Origin: Acidobacteria bacterium 28-9
GTDB lineage: Bacteria > Acidobacteriota > Blastocatellia > Pyrinomonadales > Pyrinomonadaceae
Direction: 5' to 3'
DNA: 64,000 nt
NCBI GenBank assembly: GCA_002050355.1
Contig: MWYY01000062.1
Span: 73,247-137,246 of the forward strand
Position numbers and translations under genes: made by a program. Every line of letters starts with the position of its first letter. Within the stretch, counting starts at the first letter, position 1. Positions 10,047 to 51,821 of the stretch are shown piece after piece. A model generated the notes under the pieces. That model was not told the DNA's origin and did not search any database. It worked only from the letters and a program-made list of their open reading frames with translations.

Positions 10047-10577
10047 TTATTTCAGGCGAAAGCTGTTTATCATCTCGTTTATTCTATGAATGTAAACGTC
10101 TCTAAACGGCTGCAGAACTAAAACTTGCAGATTGTATGTCTTTTGCCGCTGGCGGCTTTCGACGATTTTTCGGAAATCAATCATTGAAAAATCGTCTTCC
10201 GTTTTCTCGCTTTCGAGCAGAAAGACTTTTTCGTCGCCTGAAGCATTTCCCAAAACTCTCTCCGACAATATTTTATCTGCTAAACTTTTAGCTTTCGCGC
10301 CTTCGCCATCAAAATTCAAACCGCTTGTAACTGTCAGAAATGCCTGCGCCTGCCGGATGTTTCGTGTATTCTTTTCGCCGTATCCGCGCGAATATGCTTC
10401 AAATAAAAATTCGGAATTTCCTTCGAGCGGACTCATAAAGCCTTCGGGTTTCGCAATCGCAAATTCGTCCTTTTCAATAAATTCCGGCACAAAGGCTTGC
10501 CCCGCGCTTTTTTTTATTTTTGTCGAAACGAAAACCATCAGCGCAACGACGACAATTCCAACAATAAAAATTTCCAT
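10047..10577 (-). CDS. Hypothetical membrane-anchored protein
   Basis: One N-terminal TM helix (MEIFIVGIVVVALMVFV). No family recognised. It sits between rlmN and the DsbD-like gene on the same strand. Confidence 0.5.
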   Translation of the reverse strand: MEIFIVGIVVVALMVFVSTKIKKSAGQAFVPEFIEKDEFAIAKPEGFMSPLEGNSEFLFEAYSRGYGEKNTRNIRQAQAFLTVTSGLNFDGEGAKAKSLADKILSERVLGNASGDEKVFLLESEKTEDDFSMIDFRKIVESRQRQKTYNLQVLVLQPFRDVYIHRINEMINSFRLK

Positions 10578-27909: not shown

Positions 27910-28221
27910 ATGGAACGAAAAAAACTGTCCGACGAGGAAATTGAAAATTCTCTTGCCGATTTGAACGATTGGGAAGCGGAAAACGGAAACTTAAAAAAGC
28001 ACTTCGAATTTAAGAACTTTGCCGAAAGCCTGGCTTTTATCAACCGCGTCGGCGCGATTGCCGAAAAACTCGACCATCACCCGGACATTTTATTCGGATG
28101 GGACTACGCGGAATTTTTTATCACGACACACGACGCAGGTGGTATTACAGCGCAGGATTTTGCGCTGGCAAAAGAAATAAATAATTTAATGGAAAACGGA
28201 AAATGGAAAATGGAAAATTAA
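27910..28221 (+). CDS. phhB: 4a-hydroxytetrahydrobiopterin dehydratase (pterin-4-alpha-carbinolamine dehydratase)
   Basis: HHPD motif (LDHHPDILFGW) and ...THDAGGIT. The last ~9 codons are encoded by a hairpin arm. Confidence 0.85.
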   Translation: MERKKLSDEEIENSLADLNDWEAENGNLKKHFEFKNFAESLAFINRVGAIAEKLDHHPDILFGWDYAEFFITTHDAGGITAQDFALAKEINNLMENGKWKMEN

Positions 28222-28253
28222 AGCAAAAGTATTATCCATTTTCCATTTTCCGT
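28196..28253 (+). terminator. 19-bp perfect-stem hairpin straddling the stop codon of the PCD gene
   Basis: acggaaaatggaaaatgga (28196-28214) pairs with tccattttccattttccgt (28235-28253). The 20-nt loop contains the TAA stop (28219-28221). Confidence 0.6.
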
Positions 28254-28357
28254 TATCCGTTATCTTCCCGTCTTTGTGTTCTCACCGCTTTTTGCTTATA
28301 TTTCTTTTTTAGTTTTTATACTGAACAATTTAACAAAAGAGGTTTTTATATAAATTT

Positions 28358-29812
28358 ATGGCAAATACTCCTATTACGGTTGCGCACGGCGACGGCATCG
28401 GTCCCGAAATTATGGACGCGACGTTGCACATCTTAAAAGAAGCGGGCGCGCGGCTCGACATCGAAACGATTGAAATCGGCGAAAAAATTTATCTTTCGGG
28501 AAATGCTGCGGGCATTGCGCCTGAATCGTGGGAAAGTTTAAGACGCACGAAAGTCTTCCTAAAAGCTCCGATTACGACTCCGCAAGGCGGTGGCTACAGC
28601 AGTTTGAACGTCGCGGTTCGTAAAACGCTCGGACTTTACGCGAACATTCGCCCGTGCGTTTCCTACGCGCCGTATATCAAGACGAAACATCCGGTGATGG
28701 ATGTCGTCATCGTCCGCGAAAATGAGGAAGACACTTACGCGGGCATCGAATATCGCCAAACCGACCAGGTTGAAGAATGCCTGAAACTCATCTCGCGTCC
28801 CGGTTCGGAAAAAATCGTCCGCTACGCTTTTGAATACGCGAAACGTTTTAACCGCAAAAAAGTTACCTGCTTTATCAAAGACAATATTATGAAGCGCACG
28901 GACGGCTTGTTTCATAGAATTTTCGACACGATTGCGACCGAATACCCGGAAATCGAAGCCGACCACTGGATTGTGGACATCGGCGCGGCGAAAATGGCAG
29001 ACACGCCCGAAAACTTCGACGTTATCGTAATGCCGAATCTTTACGGAGATGTTCTCTCGGACGTAGCCGCGCAAATCGCCGGTTCGGTCGGCTTGGCAGG
29101 TTCGTCAAACATCGGCGAAAACGTCGCAATGTTTGAGGCGATTCACGGCTCTGCGCCGCGCCGCGCCGGACAAAATCTGGCGAATCCGTCGGGTTTATTT
29201 TTGGGCGCGATTTTGATGCTCGTCCATATAAATCAGCCGGATGTTGCCGAAAAAGCTCACAACGCCTGGCTTCGCACGATTGAAGACGGCGTTCACACTT
29301 ACGACATTTTCAAAGAAGGCGTTTCCAAAGAAAAAGTCGGAACAAAAGAATTTGCCGAAGCCGTCGTCGCCAGATTGGGACAAAAACCGGAAACTCTGAA
29401 AGCCGTAACTTACAAAGCAAACGTCGCAGAAACCGACGCGAAACCGATTTTCTCATCGCCCGAACCGCAGAAAAAACAACTCGTCGGCGTTGACGTGTTT
29501 TTGGATTGGTGGAAAGGTTCATACTACGGCGTGGCAAACGAACTCGGCGCGCTCGTCGAAGCGGTCAACGGCGACGGCTTAAAGCTGCAATCAATCGCCA
29601 ATCGCGGCGTCAAAGTCTATCCGGGCGGAAACCCCGACACCTTCACCGTTGACCACTGGCGCTGCCGCTTCGTCAGCGAGGCGGGCGAAGGAAACACGGT
29701 TGACAAAAACCAACTGATTTCGCTTCTGCAACGCCTTAACGAAGCCGGATTAGACGTTGTGAAAACCGAAAATCTCTACAACTTCGACGGCGCGAAAGGT
29801 TATTCGGCGTAA
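28358..29812 (+). CDS. icd: Isocitrate dehydrogenase (isocitrate/isopropylmalate dehydrogenase family) with ~130-aa C-terminal extra domain
   Basis: The core carries SLNVA.RK, NLYGD..SD and HGSAP blocks. A long C-terminal extension resembles what I recall for the Thermus-type 490-aa ICDH. Confidence 0.85.
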   Translation: MANTPITVAHGDGIGPEIMDATLHILKEAGARLDIETIEIGEKIYLSGNAAGIAPESWESLRRTKVFLKAPITTPQGGGYSSLNVAVRKTLGLYANIRPCVSYAPYIKTKHPVMDVVIVRENEEDTYAGIEYRQTDQVEECLKLISRPGSEKIVRYAFEYAKRFNRKKVTCFIKDNIMKRTDGLFHRIFDTIATEYPEIEADHWIVDIGAAKMADTPENFDVIVMPNLYGDVLSDVAAQIAGSVGLAGSSNIGENVAMFEAIHGSAPRRAGQNLANPSGLFLGAILMLVHINQPDVAEKAHNAWLRTIEDGVHTYDIFKEGVSKEKVGTKEFAEAVVARLGQKPETLKAVTYKANVAETDAKPIFSSPEPQKKQLVGVDVFLDWWKGSYYGVANELGALVEAVNGDGLKLQSIANRGVKVYPGGNPDTFTVDHWRCRFVSEAGEGNTVDKNQLISLLQRLNEAGLDVVKTENLYNFDGAKGYSA

Positions 29813-29838
29813 GTTTTAGAGATGAATTAGGAATGATG

Positions 29839-29866
29839 AAAGACGAAGTTTCGGCTTCGTCTTTTT
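29839..29866 (+). terminator. icd terminator hairpin
   Basis: aaagacgaag / tttcgg / cttcgtcttt followed by tttg. Confidence 0.6.
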
Positions 29867-29956
29867 GTCTTTAATTTACTTCTTTATATTTCCACAGCTA
29901 TATGTTATTAATAAACTTGTTTCATACGTTGTCGTTTGTTTCACCTATTCAATTTT

Positions 29957-30880
29957 ATGGAAAAGGAAACATTTTTTAATTACTTAAAGCCGTGGTCTAA
30001 ACGCAAGCATCGTATTCTTGGTAAATACTTAAAACCGTTTGCTGCTAAAGTAGCGACAATTACTCAAAATAGAGAAATTTTTTGTATAGACGGTTTTGCA
30101 GGCGCGGCTAAATATGATGATGGAAGCGTCGGTTCTCCTTTGATGTTAGCGCAACTTTCAGATGAATGTTCAAAATGGCAGAATCCTGTAACTTTGAAGT
30201 TAATTAACATTGAACCAAATAACAAAAATTTTTCTTCGCTGGAATATATAACGCAAGATTGGATAAACAAAGGAACTGTCAAAAACTTTAATGAAAAGTT
30301 TATTGATGCAATTCCTCACATACTTTCGGAAATACGAAACGCCCCGGCATTTTTCTTTGTTGACCCGTTCGGACCAACGGCAGTTCACTTTTCACATTTG
30401 CAACCGATTTTGCAACGAACGCAACAAGCCACCGAGCTATTTATCAATTTCGATACGGACGGATTGCAACGTATAGCTGATGCAAGTCAATCAAAAAGCG
30501 ATAATCCCAAAACCGTTAAATCAATTCCTAAAAATACTCAGAATGTTTCAGATATTATCGGAAGCGACGAATGGATACAAACATATCAGAATAAAAATTT
30601 GACAACCGAACAAAGACAGAATTTTCTGCTCTCAATTTATATAAATAATTTGAGAAAATTCGGATATGCTGTTGTTGCTTACCCAATTCGAGAGGCACTG
30701 GAAAAAGCGGCAAAATACCATATGATTTACTGCACTCGTCATAATGACGGAGTGATTTTAATGAATGATTTTATGTTTGAAGAAGAAAATTCTTTGGAAG
30801 AAGAACATTCAACTATGCATTTTCCGCTTTTTGCATCATCGGCGAGCAAGAAAAACGTCGCCAAAAACTGCATATTTTGA
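29957..30880 (+). CDS. tcmP: Three-Cys-motif partner protein TcmP-like, possibly truncated by a frameshift
   Basis: WSKRKHRILGKYL, IDGFAGAAKY, GSPL and FFVDPFGP blocks match my memory of TIGR04474. It sits immediately upstream of a Gp37/Gp68 gene. ATG 29957 is preferred over TTG 29936. Confidence 0.65.
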   Translation: MEKETFFNYLKPWSKRKHRILGKYLKPFAAKVATITQNREIFCIDGFAGAAKYDDGSVGSPLMLAQLSDECSKWQNPVTLKLINIEPNNKNFSSLEYITQDWINKGTVKNFNEKFIDAIPHILSEIRNAPAFFFVDPFGPTAVHFSHLQPILQRTQQATELFINFDTDGLQRIADASQSKSDNPKTVKSIPKNTQNVSDIIGSDEWIQTYQNKNLTTEQRQNFLLSIYINNLRKFGYAVVAYPIREALEKAAKYHMIYCTRHNDGVILMNDFMFEEENSLEEEHSTMHFPLFASSASKKNVAKNCIF

Positions 30881-31077
30881 CAGAACAGTTTCTTCAAAAT
30901 AATCTGCAAACAACAAGAAAACAAATCAAACGTCATCTGATTTTCGCTTATTTCGCTCAATTTCATACTAAAGATTACAATGCTGTCGTTAAAGATTTTC
31001 TTGACGACGAAAAATTAAAAGCCGCGCACGGTAAAAAGAGAATCAACGACGACGAAATTTTATTTTATTCCAAATAA
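30877..31077 (+). CDS. 66-codon ORF, either the detached C-terminal part of tcmP or a small coupled gene
   Basis: TTG start overlaps the tcmP TGA (TTTTGA). Its frame is open from 30781. Its stop overlaps the next ATG (TAATG). Confidence 0.35.
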
Positions 31078-31805
31078 TGGCTACAAAATCATCAATCGAA
31101 TGGACAGAATCAACTTGGAATCCAATCACGGGCTGCAACAAAATCAGTCCGGGCTGTAAGAATTGCTATGCCGAACGGCTGGCGAAACGGCTCAAAGCAA
31201 TGGGACAAGCAAATTACAAAAGAGGTTTCAAGCTCACTTTGCAACCGCAAATGCTTGAACTGCCGTTAAGCTGGAAGAAGCCGCAAACGATTTTTGTTAA
31301 TTCAATGTCTGACTTATTTCACAAAGACGTTCCTCTTGATTACATTCAACAAATTTTCGACGTGATGAAACGCGCTTATTGGCATCGTTTTCAAGCTCTA
31401 ACAAAGCGTTCGAGCCGATTGGCTGAGTTAAGTCCTTTTCTTGAGTGGTCGCCGAACATTTGGATGGGCGTTTCGGTTGAAAGCCAAAAATATGTTTATC
31501 GAATTGATAACTTGCGACGAACCGGCGCGGCAATTAAGTTTTTATCTTTAGAGCCTTTGCTCGGAGCGTTGAAAAATCTTGATTTGAGCGAAATGGATTG
31601 GGCGATTGTCGGCGGCGAAAGCGGTTACGGCGCGCGTCCGATTTTAGAAGAATGGGTGACTGAAATTCGGCATCAATGTCAAAATCAAAACGTGGCATTT
31701 TTCTTCAAACAATGGGGCGGCACAAATAAAAAGAAAACCGGACGATTGCTTGAAGGTAGAACTTGGGACGAAATGCCGGAAAAAGCTCAAGCAATCACAG
31801 CATAA
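31077..31805 (+). CDS. Gp37/Gp68 (PF07505, DUF5131) family three-Cys protein
   Basis: N-terminal [15 protein letters not shown]-x6-C-x2-CY (Cys codons within 31134-31166). Also GGESG and FFFKQWGG blocks typical of the family. Confidence 0.8.
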
Positions 31806-31856
31806 TTAAACAAAGATTTGTTTGAAATGCGGATTTGTCTATAAAGAAATAGAAAA

Positions 31857-32273
31857 ATGAATGACTTAAAACGTTTTTTAGACGCGCAGGAAAATGATTT
31901 TGAGCGTGCATTATCTGAAATTAAACGCGGCAGAAAACAAAGTCATTGGATGTGGTATATTTTCCCGCAAATCAAGGGTTTGGGTTCGAGCGAAACTTCC
32001 AGATTCTACGCCGTCAAAGATCGCGCCGAAGCCGAACTTTACCTGGCGCATCCGGTTTTGGGCGCGCGGCTCGTTGAAGTTTCCGAAGCACTGCTGGAAA
32101 TCGAGGGGAAAACGGCGAATCAGATATTCGGCAGTCCTGACGACGTGAAACTGAAATCCTCTATAACATTGTTCGGGTCGCTGGAAAACGCGCATCCGGT
32201 TTTCCGAAAAGTTTTAGATAAGTATTTTAACGGCGCAAAAGACCAGAGAACATTGGAACAGATTGACGTTTGA
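31857..32273 (+). CDS. DUF1810 family protein
   Basis: FLDAQE...Y..AL.E...G.K.SHWMWYIFPQ..GLG.S block. 138 aa. Confidence 0.75.
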   Translation: MNDLKRFLDAQENDFERALSEIKRGRKQSHWMWYIFPQIKGLGSSETSRFYAVKDRAEAELYLAHPVLGARLVEVSEALLEIEGKTANQIFGSPDDVKLKSSITLFGSLENAHPVFRKVLDKYFNGAKDQRTLEQIDV

Positions 32274-32308
32274 AAATGTAATGATGAATCTGTTCGCGGA
32301 TGAAAAAT

Positions 32309-32341
32309 AAAAGGGACGAAGCCGAAACTTCGTCCTTTTTT
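32309..32341. terminator. Bidirectional terminator hairpin between the DUF1810 gene and selO
   Basis: aaaagggacgaag / ccgaaa / cttcgtccttttt. An A-run precedes it and a T-run follows. Confidence 0.6.
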
Positions 32342-32360: not shown

Positions 32361-33911
32361 CTACGAGCTGCACGAAAGCATTGAACAGCCGGCTTTTTCC
32401 TTTGCCCAATCGGGGCGTTTGGCAAACCATTTTTCAGATTCGGGTTGTTCGTCGTATGGTTTGAGAAGCAATTTAAATAGTTCGTCAACGACCGAATAAT
32501 CGCCTTCGTCCGCCGCGTCAATCGCTAATTGCGCCATATAATTTCGCAAAACGTATTTCGGATTGACCAGGTTCATCGCGGCGGTTCTTTTGGTTTTTTC
32601 GCTGGTTTCGGCGACGAGAATTTCGGCGTAGTTTTTTAGAAAATCAGTCCACTGCGGTTTGAATTTTTCGAGCGTTGCGGAATAGCTCGATTCTTCGAGC
32701 TTCGTCCAAAACTCATTCGGATTGTTTTCATCGAATTGGTCGAGTCGGCGGAAAAACAAAGTCATATCCATCTCAGATTGGTAAAGCAAATTTTCGAGTT
32801 CGGCGATGAAATCCGTCTCACCGGCATTTTTCAAACCTAATTTATCGGACATCATTCGGATGTGTTTCGGTAGATACGAAGTTTGGTACTTGTCCAAAAT
32901 TTCTTCGAGCGGCGCGGCGTCTTCGATGAGCGGATAAAACGCGTTGCCGAGTTGGAGCAGATTCCAGAGACCGATTGAGGCTTGGTTGCCGTAGCGGTAG
33001 CGACGCTGCCCCGCGTCGGTCGTGTTCGGCGTCCAGTTCGGGTCGTAGTTTTCGAGCCAGCCGTAAGGACCGTAATCAATCGTCAAACCCAAAATCGACA
33101 TATTATCGGTGTTCATCACGCCGTGAACGAAGCCGACGCGTTCCCAGTGAATCATCAAATCGAGCGTTCGTTCGGTGATTTCGCGGAAAAATTCGATGTA
33201 GCTTTCTTTGTTTGGCTCGCCCAAATGCGGGTAAAAATTACCAATCGTGTAATCGGCGAGCTTCTTCAAATTTTCCAAATCCTGCCGCACGGTCAAGATT
33301 TGAAAATTCCCGAAACGAACGAAGCTCGGCGCGACGCGGCAGACGATTGCGCCTTTTTCGTATTCGGCGTTGCCGTTATAAAACATATCGCGCAAGACTG
33401 CATCGCCCGTCAAAACCAGCGACAGCGCGCGCGTCGTCGGAACTCCGAGATGAAACATCGCTTCGCTGCAAAGATATTCCCGAATCGAAGAACGCAGCAC
33501 GGCAAGCCCGTCCGCGCCGCGCGAATACGGCGTTTTCCCCGCGCCTTTTAACTGCAAAGCCCATTGTTGATTATTATGATTGACCTCAAACAAGTTAATC
33601 GCTCTGCCGTCGCCCAACTGTCCCGCCCAATGTCCGAACTGATGCCCGCCGTAACACATCGCAAACGGCTCGGTTGCGGGATAAATTTCCGCGCCCGAAA
33701 AAACTTTCAGGAATTCTTCGCTGTTCGCGTCCGTTTCAGTTAACCCGACCGCTTTGAGCATCTGCGGCGAATAATGCACGAGCGAAGGTTTGCCCGGAAT
33801 TTTTGGCGTAACACGAGAAAAACAGGCATTCGGCACTTGGCGAACATAGTTTTCCGTAACCGAATCCGCGGGCAGCGCTTTATTAAAGGTGTCGTTCAGG
33901 TTTAATTTCAT
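32361..33911 (-). CDS. selO: Protein adenylyltransferase SelO (YdiU/UPF0061)
   Basis: 516 aa with YGGHQFG, GDGRA, RSSIRE and HGVMNTDN blocks. The C-terminus ...LSCSS has Cys at the antepenultimate position, where eukaryotic SelO carries Sec. Confidence 0.9.
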   Translation of the reverse strand: MKLNLNDTFNKALPADSVTENYVRQVPNACFSRVTPKIPGKPSLVHYSPQMLKAVGLTETDANSEEFLKVFSGAEIYPATEPFAMCYGGHQFGHWAGQLGDGRAINLFEVNHNNQQWALQLKGAGKTPYSRGADGLAVLRSSIREYLCSEAMFHLGVPTTRALSLVLTGDAVLRDMFYNGNAEYEKGAIVCRVAPSFVRFGNFQILTVRQDLENLKKLADYTIGNFYPHLGEPNKESYIEFFREITERTLDLMIHWERVGFVHGVMNTDNMSILGLTIDYGPYGWLENYDPNWTPNTTDAGQRRYRYGNQASIGLWNLLQLGNAFYPLIEDAAPLEEILDKYQTSYLPKHIRMMSDKLGLKNAGETDFIAELENLLYQSEMDMTLFFRRLDQFDENNPNEFWTKLEESSYSATLEKFKPQWTDFLKNYAEILVAETSEKTKRTAAMNLVNPKYVLRNYMAQLAIDAADEGDYSVVDELFKLLLKPYDEQPESEKWFAKRPDWAKEKAGCSMLSCSS

Positions 33912-47163: not shown

Positions 47164-48189
47164 CTATCCAACTTCTATCAAATTGTTTTTGTAACACTCA
47201 ACTCTACCAATTACAATTGCGTTTGGAACCTGCGCTAAAAATCTTTCTGCCTTTTCTTCTTCCAAACTTATAAGCAATCCACCCGCCGTTTGCGGGTCAA
47301 ACAAGGCGCTTTGCATTTCTTTAGTTATAGTTTTTCCAAACCTGACAGTTTCGCCGACATATTCGCGGTTGTTTTTATCTCCGCGCGTCAACATTTTTTT
47401 TTCAATTAAATTCATTACATCGGGCAAAAGCGGAATTTTATCAGATTGTAATGTAAGCGTTACGTCGCTTGCTTTTGCCATCTCAAAAGCATGACCGAGT
47501 AATCCGAAACCGGTTACGTCCGTGCAACCGTTTGCCTTGACTTTCTGCATTACTTTAGATGCTTCTCTAGCAGAAGTTGTCATTGTTTTTAATACTGCCC
47601 TTTTTGATTCCTCACTCGCCTTGTCAAATTTTATTGCTGTGTTTATCACGCCCGTTCCGATTGGTTTTGTTAAAATCAATACATCACCTGCCTTTGCGCC
47701 GGAATTTTTTATAATTCTTCGATGATCAATAGTTCCGGTAATTGCATAACCGAATTTTATCTCTGAATCATCAACCGAATGCCCGCCTAAAACGACTACG
47801 TTTTCCTTGTTTAAAGCCTTTTGCCCACCTGACATTATTTCTCCCAAAACATCCCAATCGCCTTTCTGCGGATAACAAACTATGGAAAGTGCAGAAATTG
47901 GTGTTCCGCCCATTGCATAAACGTCGTTCAAGGAATTAATAGCGGCAATTTTTCCGTAGATTTCCGGCTCGTCAGCGACAGGTGTGAAGAAATCAACCGT
48001 TTGAACCAAAGCAATCTCAGCGTTAAGACGAAATACACCGGCATCGTCAGCTGTTTCATAGCCTACTAAAACATCCGATGAAAAATTCTGGTTCGGTAAT
48101 TTACTCAAAACTTGAGCAAGGTCGCGCGGCGCTAATTTAGCCACTCAACCAGCGCAAGAAACCATTTCGGTTAGTCGTTTATGTTTCAT
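47164..48189 (-). CDS. selD: Selenide, water dikinase SelD, selenocysteine-containing (in-frame UGA at 48145-48147)
   Basis: Reading upstream of the listed GTG start gives ATG(48189) K H K R L T E M V S C A G [TGA] V A K L A P R D L. RLT...AG-U-xAK aligns with E. coli RLTQYSHGAG-C17-GCK. Confidence 0.85.
48101..48119 (-). ncRNA. Candidate SECIS-like hairpin within the selD mRNA
   Basis: On the minus strand, UUGCUCAA-GUU-UUGAGUAA forms an 8-bp stem (one G-U pair) with a 3-nt loop, starting 25 nt after the UGA. No covariance check was possible. Confidence 0.35.
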
Positions 48190-48206
48190 AAATTATAATT
48201 CCTATC

Positions 48207-49070
48207 CTATTTAGAAACTAACAATTGGTAGATTCTATCCAAATCCGATTCACTATAATATTCTATCTCAATTTTACCGCCTGTTCCCTTTCCATCAGAA
48301 ATTATTTGGACTTGTGTCCCTAGTTGTCGTCGCAGTTTTATTTCTGCTGCTTTGACATTAGCATCTTTTTGCCTCGTAACTGCTTTATTTTCAGGCGCTT
48401 GCCCGTCTTCCCTGCCAATTCTTTTTACTGCCTTTTCGGTTTCTCTGACCGATAACGACATCTCAATTATTTTTCCGGCAAGGCGTCTCTGCGAATTTTC
48501 GTCTCCCGTCATCAACAAAGCTCTTGCATGACCGGCTGTAATTTTTTGCTCTTCGATTAATTTTTGTATATCATCGGGAAGTTTCAACAATCTTAAAAAA
48601 GTCGTGATCACAGTACGATTTTTCCCAACTCTTTCGGCAATCATTTCCTGCGTTAGCCCGATGGTTTCAATTAAATTTTTATAAGCTCTTGCCTCTTCAA
48701 TTGCATTGAGTTCTTGTCTTTGAATATTTTCAATCAATGCTAATTCGAGCAATTTTTCGTTTGCTACAGTTTTTACTACTGCAGTAATTTTTTTCAACCC
48801 TACCTTTTTAGCGGCGCGCCACCGTCTTTCGCCTGCAACTAGTTCGAAAATCGAACCTTTACGCCTTACTATAATCGGTTGTACTATTCCATTTGCTTTT
48901 ATTGACTGTGCTAAATCGTTTAGACTTTCTTCGGTAAATTTTGTTCTTGGTTGTTCAGCGTTTGGTTCTATCAAATCTATGCCGATTTCAAGTAGTTCCC
49001 CGCCTTTCGTCTGAGTTGTTTCTTCACCCAGAAGAGCATTTAATCCTCGACCCAAGACTTTCCTATTCAT
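48207..49070 (-). CDS. parB: Chromosome partitioning protein ParB/Spo0J
   Basis: [14 protein letters not shown] and GERRWRAA motifs plus an HTH region. Confidence 0.9.
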
Positions 49071-49824
49071 GAGTTAATATCTCCTTTGCCAATTCTATAT
49101 AGCTTTCCGCTCCCCGTGACCTTATATCATATAAAATTATCGGCTTACCGTAACTTGGCGCTTCTGCAAGCCGAATATTACGCGGAATTACAGTTTTCAA
49201 AACTTGAGTCCCATAAAAATCTCTCAAATCTTTTGCTACCGCTGCCGACAAATTAGTCCTTTCGTCATACATTGTCAAAAGCAAACCCTCAATCATCAAT
49301 TGTGGATTGAGCCCTCTTCTTACTCGTGCCAATGTATCAAATAATTCCGTAACTCCTTCTAAGGCAAAGTATTCACATTGTATTGGGACTAGAAGAGAAT
49401 TTGCAGCTGTTAAACTATTTAATGTGAGAAGTCCTAAAGACGGTGGACAATCTATAATTATATAATCATAATCATCTTTTATTTCTTTAAGTATTTTTTT
49501 TAATTTATATTCCCGCCGCTCTGCATCAACCAATTCAATTTCAGCACCTGCCAGGTTTTTGTCTGAAGGAAGTACCGACAATAGCGGTAATTCAGTTGGT
49601 AGAACTACCTTTTCAATCGGTTCGTTTAATAACATTACATTATATAGTGTTTTTCTATTATTTAGTCGCGGAATTCCAGAACCTGAGGTTGCATTTCCTT
49701 GCGGATCTGAATCTATTAACAAAACCTTTTTTTCTTCTACAGCCAAACTTGCTGCAAGATTAATTGAAGTTGTAGTTTTTCCGACACCACCTTTTTGGTT
49801 GGCGACAGCTATTATTTTACCCAT
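49063..49824 (-). CDS. parA: Chromosome partitioning ATPase ParA/Soj
   Basis: Deviant Walker [12 protein letters not shown]. 253 aa. It overlaps parB by 8 nt. Confidence 0.9.
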
Positions 49825-49879
49825 TTTTTTTGTTTCATTTTGAATTTGTTAGTTGGAATTTATTATACACAACAATTAT

Positions 49880-49934
49880 AAATGTGGAACGTGCCACCTA
49901 AATTATTTTCGTTTTGGTGGCACGTTCCACATTT
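49880..49934 (-). terminator. 19-bp perfect inverted repeat downstream of mnmG and upstream of parA
   Basis: aaatgtggaacgtgccacc (49880-49898) pairs with ggtggcacgttccacattt (49916-49934), with a 17-nt loop. Confidence 0.5.
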
Positions 49935-49943
49935 AACAAATTC

Positions 49944-51821
49944 TCAATTTGAAACTTGTGATGTTAAATAAACAAGAAGTGTAGAAATGGCTGATGGTGT
50001 AAGACCTGAAATGTTTCGTATTTGACCGAATGTTTGTGGTTTAGATCGTTCCAGTCGTTCTATCATTTCAATCGATAGTCCATTGACACGATGAAAATTT
50101 ATTTTTTCTGGTATTTTAAGATTATCATTGTGTTTTATTCGTTCATTAACATTATGCTGAGTAACTAAATAACCTCGATACAATAAGTCTGCTAAAGCGG
50201 TTTCCAAATCAGAATCTTTTATTTTCGCTTTTATTGCTTCGGGTAATATTCTATAAATAAACCCCGAATTTACACCTTGACGTTGAGAAAGTTGAGCTAA
50301 AGAAATTTTGTCGCCTAAATCAACGCCGAGTAATTGTGAAATTGAAACATATTCAGGGTCGGAGCGTTTAAAATTTGTTGACTCCAAAACACTCCTAAGT
50401 TGAGCTATATTATCTTGTTTATAATTAAATCTATTCCAATCAGAATCAGTTAAAAGCCCTATTTCATTGCCTATTGGAGAAAGTCTTTGATCTGCATTAT
50501 CATGTCGAAGTGTAAGCCGAGCTTCTGCCCGAGAGGTAAAAATTCGATATGGCTCATCAACCCCATGGTGAATGAGGTCATCAATCAAAACTCCGATATA
50601 AGCGGAATTACGTTGTAATTGAATTGAATCTCTTTTCTGGGCAAAAAAGGCAGCGTTAATTCCTGCCATTAATCCCTGACATGCCGCTTCCTCATATCCG
50701 GTAGTTCCGTTTATTTGTCCTGCCAAAAACAATCCGTCAAGCCGTGTAGTTTCCATTGACGGTTTTAATTCTCTTGGATCTACAAAATCATATTCGATAG
50801 CATAACCGGGGCGAATAATTTTCACCGTTTCAAAACCATCTATCATTTTGAGAAGATTTTGTTGTAAATCAGCCGGTAGAGAAGTTGAGAAACCATTTAA
50901 ATACACTTCATTTGTATTATGACCTTCGGGTTCGAGAAAGAGTTGATGACGATTTTTATCAGCAAATTTAACTACTTTATCTTCAATTGAAGGGCAATAT
51001 CGCGGTCCGATTCCTTTAATTTTACCTGAATAAAGCGGCGATTGGTAAAGATTCTTTCGAATTTTATCGTGTAAATCTTCATTCGTATAACCGATGTGAC
51101 AAGTAATTTGCGATTGCTCAATTTTTTCGGTTGCGAAAGAAAAAGCTACGGGGTTTTCATCGGCAGGCTGTGCTTCAAAAGCATCCCAATCTATAGTTCT
51201 ACCATCAAGACGTGGCGGAGTTCCTGTTTTAAGCCGCCCGACAGGGAAACCGAGTCTTTTTAAGCTTTCTGCTAATTCAATAGACGCAGGTTCACCAGAA
51301 CGACCAGCCGAAAACGATTTTTGCCCGGTATGAATTTTCCCGTTTAAAAAGGTACCAGTTGCAATGATTATGGCTTTTGCTCCAAGTCTCCGTGTATCTT
51401 GCAGTTCCAAACCGATAATTTTATTTTTATCAATAATTAAATCAACTACAACACCTTGTCTAAGATGTAAATTAGGTGTGGCTTCTAGAACACGACGCAT
51501 TTCTACGCGATAAAGCGAGCGGTCAGCTTGAGCGCGAGGAGACTGAACGGCGGGACCGCGCGAACGATTCAGGAGTCGAAATTGTATACCGGTACGGTCA
51601 ATTACTCGTCCCATAATTCCACCGAGCGCATCAATCTCCCGAACGATATGACCTTTAGCAATACCACCAATAGCCGGATTACAAGACATCTGACCGATTA
51701 AATCTAAATTTATAGTAACCAACGCGGTTTCTGAACCAAGCCTTGCCGAAGCCGAAGCAGCCTCACAACCGGCATGACCTGCCCCAATCACAATCACGTC
51801 AAAAACTTCATCGAATATCAT
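49944..51821 (-). CDS. mnmG: tRNA uridine 5-carboxymethylaminomethyl modification enzyme MnmG (GidA)
   Basis: FDVIVIGAGHAGCEAA FAD motif, and SCNPAIGG, GPRYCPSIEDK and GQINGTTGYEEAA blocks. 625 aa. Confidence 0.95.
   Translation of the reverse strand: MIFDEVFDVIVIGAGHAGCEAASASARLGSETALVTINLDLIGQMSCNPAIGGIAKGHIVREIDALGGIMGRVIDRTGIQFRLLNRSRGPAVQSPRAQADRSLYRVEMRRVLEATPNLHLRQGVVVDLIIDKNKIIGLELQDTRRLGAKAIIIATGTFLNGKIHTGQKSFSAGRSGEPASIELAESLKRLGFPVGRLKTGTPPRLDGRTIDWDAFEAQPADENPVAFSFATEKIEQSQITCHIGYTNEDLHDKIRKNLYQSPLYSGKIKGIGPRYCPSIEDKVVKFADKNRHQLFLEPEGHNTNEVYLNGFSTSLPADLQQNLLKMIDGFETVKIIRPGYAIEYDFVDPRELKPSMETTRLDGLFLAGQINGTTGYEEAACQGLMAGINAAFFAQKRDSIQLQRNSAYIGVLIDDLIHHGVDEPYRIFTSRAEARLTLRHDNADQRLSPIGNEIGLLTDSDWNRFNYKQDNIAQLRSVLESTNFKRSDPEYVSISQLLGVDLGDKISLAQLSQRQGVNSGFIYRILPEAIKAKIKDSDLETALADLLYRGYLVTQHNVNERIKHNDNLKIPEKINFHRVNGLSIEMIERLERSKPQTFGQIRNISGLTPSAISTLLVYLTSQVSN

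Follow-up and report, generated by a model that had tools for sequence, protein, structure and literature searches.

Downstream of icd, the gene for NADP isocitrate dehydrogenase, the 64,000-nt stretch of Acidobacteria bacterium 28-9 DNA analysed here (contig MWYY01000062.1; hereafter the window, to whose positions all unlabelled coordinates refer) carries tcmP, coding for the protein TcmP (three-Cys-motif partner), followed by a gene of the DUF5131 (Gp37/Gp68) family. The segment 29864-31805 (about 1.95 kb: an upstream region, tcmP and the DUF5131 gene) is a self-contained, horizontally transferred two-gene cassette in which tcmP appears to be split by a frameshift. We consider it likely that this account holds in all three parts: what the cassette is, that it was acquired horizontally and that its tcmP is broken. 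By profile similarity the cassette is assigned to the family listed in PADLOC as phage-defence candidates PDC-M30/M41, and this particular copy is probably inactive and recently decayed.

In contig L001 a copy of the cassette (83% nucleotide identity, with a pair that is 86% identical) lies in an unrelated context, flanked by genes for a PilZ protein and an aminotransferase. Similarity to it starts at 29864, immediately past the icd hairpin, and continues until the DUF5131 gene ends. The conserved region upstream of tcmP (29864-29956, + strand), presumably the promoter, aligns upstream of tcmP in both L001 and L002 despite the different L001 context; a promoter scan upstream of tcmP returned no site of the sigma-70-type consensus and no enrichment. 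The cassettes of L002 and of the metagenomic contig L092 have 91-93% nucleotide identity to that of the window. tcmP and the DUF5131 gene are adjacent and co-directional in six of six other contexts (L001, L002, L083, L084, L085 and L092), and the genes around the pair differ in each of them. An earlier reading made from the letters alone (the sequence-only reading) had proposed horizontal acquisition, and the occurrence of the cassette in the unrelated L001 context together with its absence at icd in 80 related genomes agrees with this proposal.

The title of the same reading implied a module that includes the DUF1810 gene (31857-32273, + strand). This gene is an unrelated neighbour lying outside the cassette: no DUF1810 gene is found beside the pair in L001, L002, L083, L084 or L085, and in L092, the only one of the six contexts to have it, it is 1.96 kb away with a putative restriction-modification (R-M) system in between. 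In the orientation of the window the order in L092, the closest relative, is a HigB/HTH pair, a 223-aa protein, a 70-nt copy of the icd 3′ end with a hairpin, tcmP, DUF5131, a 362-aa protein gene overlapping that of a D12 N6-adenine methylase, DUF1810 and selO. The 362-aa protein, which has no Pfam hit, and the D12-class methylase (L092 1039-2927, - strand) form the putative type II R-M system, and fill the space between DUF5131 and DUF1810 that measures 51 nt in the window. A fragment similar to the 362-aa protein persists in L003 (12664-13062).

The cassette is a mosaic. The tcmP core (30190-30790) is 98-100% identical among the window, L092 and L002, while the 5′ half of the DUF5131 gene (31086-31385) is 81-84% identical between the window and the other two, which are 97-99% identical to each other. 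Compared with L092, the window has a synonymous divergence (dS) of 0.11 in tcmP and 0.69 in DUF5131. Since the tcmP core is near-identical and the DUF5131 5′ half diverges, recombination between cassette alleles is suggested. Weak inverted repeats are present at both cassette ends (29868-29888 and 31840-31860, 76% over 21 nt), containing TTCTTTATA and TATAAAGAA, and a 12-nt version of them flanks the cassette in L001. These could be terminal repeats or AT-rich promoter-like sequence.

Only the left part of the islet is AT-rich, as DUF5131 and DUF1810 are of ordinary composition (GC 0.438 and 0.458). tcmP has a GC content of 0.359, the lowest among the 49 long open reading frames (ORFs) of the window (mean 0.455, standard deviation 0.040), and a third-position GC content (GC3) of 0.312. 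The 1.94-kb cassette falls at the 3.5th percentile of same-size windows. The hand counts by which the AT-richness was first noticed, 16/60 G+C for 30181-30240 and 34/60 for 29581-29640, were exact.

Most of what the sequence-only reading had seen at the level of ORFs and families was reproduced. The ORF list contains the four + strand ORFs it had described: ORF1 (29957-30880, or from a TTG at 29936; 307 aa), ORF2 (30877-31077, 66 aa), ORF3 (31077-31805) and the DUF1810 ORF, with the stop/start overlaps TTTTGA and TAATG and the 51-nt gap before the last of them. The blocks WSKRKHRILGKYL, DGFAGAAKY, GSPL and VDPFGP are present in ORF1, and so is the x6-C-x2-C pattern at the N-terminus of ORF3. 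The family assignments hold in hidden Markov model searches, all of them strongly positive: ORF1 matches TIGR04474 (138.3 bits, cut-off 53, positions 1-259 of 263) and the PADLOC model PDC-M30A (86 bits), ORF3 matches PF07505 (334.1 bits, cut-off 28.9, positions 1-243 of 243), PDC-M41B (409 bits), PDC-M30B (390 bits) and PHROG 2045 (318 bits), and the fourth ORF matches PF08837 (197.1 bits, cut-off 25).

What did not stand is the description of the first three ORFs as translationally coupled genes, which is a frameshift artefact. On sequence comparison, ORF1 and ORF2 together make up one tcmP gene that is divided by a frameshift. The PADLOC models of the TcmP component have 368-381 positions, and ORF1 ends at about position 286. 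Joining ORF1 to the ORF2 frame, extended upstream, gives a repaired protein of 373 aa that matches homologues of 373-379 aa over 99-100% of its own length, the best of them with 95% identity. DNA alignment places the lesion after 30843: four nucleotides, GAGT in L001 and GGGC in L002, are absent from the window between 30843 and 30844, and the 3′ part of the gene continues in the shifted frame (30844-31077). The absent GAGT sits between tandem GAGT/GAGC, the pattern that would be expected of slippage. One metagenome scan, designed to detect both alleles, returned a single contig, L092 (JAABUN010000638.1), which carries the intact allele (tcmP at 4833-3709 and DUF5131 at 3709-2978, - strand); its 374-aa TcmP shares 97.9% identity with the window protein after repair.

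The TcmP family is conserved along the whole of its ~370-400 aa, so the lost C-terminal fusion matters: in place of one uninterrupted protein of this size, the window has frames of 307 aa and 66 aa, and the deletion interrupts the gene ahead of its probable winged-helix domain. The premature stop, 197 nt upstream, probably lowers translation of DUF5131 too, because the start codon of the latter overlaps the tcmP stop (TAATG) and no ribosome-binding sequence is visible before it; none was seen before the ORF2 TTG either. The dN/dS ratios of 0.04-0.12 (non-synonymous to synonymous rates) indicate strong purifying selection on both tcmP and DUF5131. The window-specific substitutions in tcmP are mostly synonymous (10 synonymous, 4 non-synonymous), which argues for a recent lesion. 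With tcmP split and DUF5131 presumably uncoupled from upstream translation, this copy is most likely inactive.

As to the nature of the two proteins, a model of TcmP was built on the intact homologue P0001 with 115 diverse homologues (predicted local distance difference test, pLDDT, 95.8). It has a seven-strand Rossmann fold, the strand order being read from the model, and 95 matches in the PDB at E <= 1e-3; among the matches listed, almost all are S-adenosylmethionine (SAM) methyltransferases. The best neighbours are Trm1 (E 1.8e-5), MnmM and RlmJ, the last with the highest template modelling (TM) score, 0.42. The conserved DGFAGxGxY follows strand 1, E85 stands at the end of strand 2 and DPFG directly follows strand 4; in the model these positions correspond to motifs I, II and IV. 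Trm1 may also have a DPFG. TcmP is thus predicted to be a protein of the class-I SAM-methyltransferase fold, which is in line with the Rossmann-type methyltransferase reading given earlier. In the 90 C-terminal residues there is a weak resemblance to a winged helix (RPA32, E 0.0086), and 7 of 115 members match Pfam GMT-wHTH weakly; a winged-helix C-terminal domain is probable. TcmP shares with class-I nucleic-acid N-methyltransferases of the Trm1, RlmJ and RsmD type the seven-strand Rossmann fold, the motif-I-like DGFAGxGxY, the acidic E85 that ends strand 2 and DPFG. It differs from them in having TM scores of 0.42 at most and no significant sequence match to a solved methyltransferase, in its large helical insertion and probable C-terminal winged helix, and in being obligatorily paired with a radical-SAM-like protein. 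A closer relationship to RlmJ was considered and rejected, as a profile comparison with Escherichia coli RlmJ aligned motif I only (22 columns, probability 30%).

Neither TcmP nor DUF5131 has a significant match to PDB sequences by sequence or profile, the RPA32 winged helix against the TcmP C-terminus being the only marginal match for either protein. DUF5131 is intact in the window: it has the three-Cys motif G-C-x6-C-x2-C-Y-A (C20, C27, C30, Y31) and keeps 51 of 51 invariant columns of a 103-sequence family alignment. Its model (pLDDT 90.2) is a six-unit beta/alpha partial barrel with viperin (E 1.6e-3, TM 0.47), spore photoproduct lyase (SPL) and lipoyl synthase as the best, marginal, PDB neighbours; there is no PDB match at E <= 1e-3, and generic TIM barrels score similarly. 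DUF5131 matches TIGR04471 (“radical SAM mobile pair protein A”) with E 4e-20, below the cut-off of that model, and this homology appears to support membership of the radical SAM superfamily. At RadicalSAM.org DUF5131 is listed as a radical SAM subgroup next to SPL (PMC9477430). DUF5131 appears to be related to the radical SAM enzymes of the SPL clade, which gives a more definite form to the idea of a metal or Fe-S partner that the Cys triad had first prompted: the protein is radical-SAM-like by the TIGR04471 match, the viperin and SPL fold neighbours and the subgroup listing. With SPL, PA0069, Rv2578c, the mobile pair A/B proteins and viperin it shares an N-terminal three-Cys loop ending in C-x2-C-Y-A and, as its model suggests, possibly the partial barrel; it differs from them in the spacing CX6CX2C, in having no Pfam Radical_SAM match, in its shorter length (242 aa) and in needing a methyltransferase-fold partner. 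In one close homologue of DUF5131, P0139 (362 aa), an insertion of ~120 aa occurs right after the conserved GGESG(Y), which could be an intein or a gene-calling artefact.

Both families are large (2106 representative clusters at E <= 1e-3 for TcmP and more than 8000 scored relatives for DUF5131), and the tie between them extends to viruses. Forty-eight viral contigs carry a TcmP relative; DUF5131 adjoins it in 25 and another three-Cys protein in 18. As 43 of the 48 loci thus have a radical-SAM-like partner, TcmP seems to be specifically tied to radical-SAM-like enzymes of this clade. The second type of pair has a three-Cys partner of 253 aa (GCQHGCLYPCYA) which matches the PA0069, Rv2578c and mobile-pair-B radical SAM models; its TcmP passes TIGR04474, and it was found in L096 and 17 further viral loci. 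In L096 (2361-9866 of this IMG/VR contig) McrB-McrC immediately precede this pair, and a CapP-like peptidase-HTH gene comes after it. In Gordonia phage Easley the pair is located between the integrase and the immunity repressor, with TcmP directly downstream of the repressor, a typical place for lysogeny-expressed genes. Among phages, 181 records contain DUF5131, for the most part in an early region with DNA methylases, HNH endonucleases and polymerase nearby. Two other phage genes were considered and set aside: phiE125 gp38 is upstream of, and coupled to, the DUF5131 gene of that phage and is not TcmP-like, and gp43/44 of Gordonia phage CarolAnn are RexAB-like and unrelated. In S. meliloti a TcmP gene is listed next to Hna, within what the source paper took to be a putative transcription unit, and M. 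tuberculosis also appears to carry the pair.

Considering these features, we propose that TcmP and DUF5131 may form one two-subunit SAM-using enzyme that acts on nucleic acid, most likely DNA. The winged-helix/methyltransferase-fold subunit would bind and present the target, and the iron-sulfur subunit would act on a base or sugar by radical chemistry, from which either a protective mark or damage to invading DNA could result. A two-subunit DNA enzyme of this kind, operating in genetic conflict, is a tentative reading of the models and gene neighbours, to which we would give somewhat less than an even chance. A defence-type role, which the sequence-only reading had raised, is a reasonable hypothesis in view of the PADLOC listing and of the defence genes near the pair in relatives: defence or toxin-antitoxin genes neighbour its region in L003, L004 and L092. 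The places of the pair between McrBC and the CapP-like gene in L096 and in the lysogeny slot of phage Easley, and of TcmP next to Hna in S. meliloti, also speak for such a role. The window proteins match both the A and B models of PDC-M30/M41 and share the two-gene architecture, intact members having the same full length; the window copy differs in its frameshift-split tcmP. PDC-M30 has been noted as more frequent in phage-resistant P. aeruginosa strains (PMC10855318). The wider proposal appears doubtful to us, namely that TcmP and its three-Cys partner would be a new two-component SAM-dependent, DNA-directed radical enzyme, serving bacteria and temperate phages as an immune or anti-immune device with a so far undescribed chemistry on DNA and travelling as a minimal, integrase-free 2-kb cassette that, in this lineage, enters the icd 3′ end.

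Several points weigh against our interpretation. The mechanism is drawn from folds and neighbours. The nearest structural neighbours of TcmP are tRNA and rRNA methyltransferases at TM scores not above 0.42, the best fold match of DUF5131 is marginal, its motif is CX6CX2C, not the canonical CX3CX2C, and PF04055 (Radical_SAM) is absent from its Pfam hits at E <= 0.01. In phages, DUF5131 genes mostly stand alone, in early or replication regions. The PDC entries of PADLOC are unvalidated “guilt-by-embedding” candidates; we found no report in the literature of a validated phenotype or biochemistry for the PDC-M30/M41 family, nor, in the searchable literature, an experiment on any of its members. 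The frameshift is known from the assembled sequence alone, and the 10 to 4 ratio of tcmP substitutions shows no clear relaxation of selection. Finally, the situation in M. tuberculosis points to DNA repair.

There, Rv2735c, which has a TcmP domain, is co-transcribed with recA-recX (PMC3062782), and the Rv2734-Rv2735c-recX-recA cluster is differentially expressed under mitomycin C (PMC5057432). The pair could accordingly be a module of the DNA damage response or of repair, in which a DNA-binding partner of methyltransferase fold guides an SPL-like radical SAM enzyme that reverses or processes a DNA lesion. The position of DUF5131 beside SPL in radical SAM sequence space and the presence of SPL among its best fold matches fit such a role, as do the alternative TcmP partner, with its matches to the PA0069, Rv2578c and mobile-pair-B models, and the CapP-like peptidase-HTH gene adjoining the pair in L096. 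Against it stand the patchy distribution of the pair as a mobile 2-kb cassette in unrelated contexts, its position in the lysogeny slot of a temperate phage and the McrBC, R-M and toxin-antitoxin genes that surround it. In M. smegmatis no Rv2735c-like gene is present downstream of recA-recX, so the linkage in M. tuberculosis may be an accident of insertion. We regard the repair role as unlikely.

A different question is whether the window copy itself might be intact and active, i.e. a working defence or modification module as first suggested, with the 4-nt gap being an assembly or sequencing error or with the split TcmP functioning as two polypeptides. DUF5131 keeps every invariant residue, the few changes peculiar to the window tcmP are mostly synonymous, the C-terminal part is still open in the shifted frame with 64 of its 66 residues matching L092, and the TTG start of ORF2 overlaps the ORF1 stop. 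On the other hand, the loss of a GAGT next to its tandem repeats resembles natural slippage and not a homopolymer error, the TTG and the DUF5131 ATG both lack a purine-rich ribosome-binding sequence in front of them, and the C-terminal domain is fused in 120 of 120 query-covering homologues among the matches listed. An active cassette is therefore rather improbable, and we keep to the view of a probably inactive copy. By mentioning a “repaired tcmP” the sequence-only reading had hinted at the lesion, and that hint was sound; its ranking of the islet as the best candidate in the window for an uncharacterised system was not, both as the copy is probably non-functional and as the family is already listed as a PADLOC candidate, if an unvalidated one.

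The place where the cassette was inserted is variable. Relatives of icd place the window in the Pyrinomonadaceae (Acidobacteriota), and the icd locus was compared in a synteny sample of 80 genomes of related species. Among the more distant ones purE comes within ~100 bp after icd, and in the closer ones the gap is 0.1-6 kb. None of the 80 has tcmP, DUF5131, DUF1810, selO or the GNAT gene downstream of icd, which makes the whole 4.9-kb icd-purE interval of the window lineage-specific. The adjacency of icd and purE is ancestral and selO is part of the variable interval. The sequence-only reading had suggested asking whether icd and selO are adjacent where the islet is missing; it is purE, not selO, that follows icd in relatives. 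Read by eye, the gap in more distant relatives is filled for the most part with ordinary accessory genes (thioredoxin-like, Ser/Thr kinase-TPR, transporters), and by the same reading the character of a defence islet is limited to the closest relatives. In the two closest species (icd 96% identical) the genes downstream of icd include those for a GmrSD type IV restriction enzyme, Fic/Doc, a Gp49/HTH (HigBA-like) pair, UPF0175/DUF3368, CHAT-TPR and a Dcm methylase.

In the closest relatives the terminal 50-240 nt of icd, together with its terminator, are found again downstream of icd as direct copies. Matching window 29633-29866, these copies are located at 10286-10394 and 14127-14367 in L003, 11199-11320 in L004, 2362-2468 in L002 and ~4980-5049 in L092, where the copy stands alone. 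Several islets of 1.7-3.7 kb are bounded by such copies, and in L002 they bound the cassette together with a short degenerate downstream ORF. At 2295-2468 of L002, ~74 nt of the purE upstream region and start codon are fused to the 107-nt icd 3′ copy, followed by a sulfatase gene and a second purE start, which is either an assembly chimera or the scar of a rearrangement. The window itself yielded no second icd 3′ copy, only short weak direct matches that are possibly due to chance.

The pattern resembles what repeated insertions of the Campbell type at the 3′ end of icd would leave. In E. coli, e14 and phage 21 integrate at this end of icd, and the islets of the relatives resemble these elements in being bounded by direct copies of the icd end and terminator. 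They differ in their small size and in having no integrase, no integrase-like ORF being present in the islets of the window, L003, L004 or L092, and Campbell-type homologous recombination could produce the same islet pattern. A site-specific integrative element at icd would combine a duplicated icd end with an integrase, and the window has neither. It could nevertheless be supposed that the islet is the remnant of a prophage or integrative element and that its two genes served phage replication or DNA metabolism, with no function for the host. The frequent occurrence of DUF5131 in early phage regions, the PHROG 2045 match and the likeness of the bounding icd copies to the e14 and phage 21 sites favour a phage origin, but the islets of the window, L003, L004 and L092 hold no other phage gene, the cassette stands alone between housekeeping genes in five other contigs and both genes are under strong purifying selection, so that we find a remnant of this kind improbable. 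A housekeeping-like pair for tRNA or rRNA modification, incidentally located in an island, is less credible still: TcmP does have Trm1, MnmM and RlmJ as best structural neighbours and a motif I resembling that of RlmJ, a few members of its family match the RsmD family weakly and several radical SAM enzymes modify RNA, but the likeness to RNA methyltransferases is at fold level only (the TM scores and the 22-column RlmJ alignment given above), and the pair is absent from most relatives, mobile, phage-encoded and found among defence genes.

On the left the cassette is flanked by icd (28358-29812, + strand; NF006673, 770 bits) with its terminator-like hairpin (29838-29866, + strand), the left cassette boundary. 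On the right, beyond DUF1810, lies selO/YdiU (32361-33911, - strand; NF000658, 556 bits), preceded by a bidirectional terminator hairpin between DUF1810 and selO (32310-32337, with a terminator-like site at 32335-32314 on the - strand). The block had been described as lying between two housekeeping genes, each with its own terminator hairpin; flanks and hairpins are as described, while selO itself belongs to the variable region. The hairpins at 29839-29866 and 32310-32337 have identical stems and 6-nt loops that are reverse complements of each other. Together they make an inverted repeat of 28 nt (89% complementary) with the cassette and DUF1810 in between. This hairpin pattern occurs twice in the window against 0.01 expected. 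The inverted pair may come from an inversion or from a shared terminator that arrived with selO.

Rfam and tRNA scans found no RNA genes in the region. Below threshold, Rfam models of plant miRNA precursors matched both strands of a long hairpin at 28179-28265, between a pterin-carbinolamine-dehydratase-like ORF (27910-28221) and icd; the matches reflect only its long near-perfect stem, and the hairpin is probably a terminator. Elsewhere in the window a second low-GC cluster of four ORFs (47164-51821, - strand; GC 0.365-0.401, GC3 0.24-0.34) has a GC3 below that of tcmP and is possibly another acquired island.

Overall, the cassette of the window is probably a degenerate copy of an already catalogued candidate pair. 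Being broken, it adds little to the question of function; its contribution lies in the boundaries of the cassette, in intact close relatives suited to cloning (L092, proteins P0001 and P0124) and in evidence from context, i.e. the defence islets at icd, the prophage lysogeny slot and the embedding beside McrBC. The pair of TcmP and a three-Cys protein is widespread, and if it does prove to be a radical-SAM-based system that modifies or damages DNA, it would represent a new chemistry for phage defence or DNA repair.

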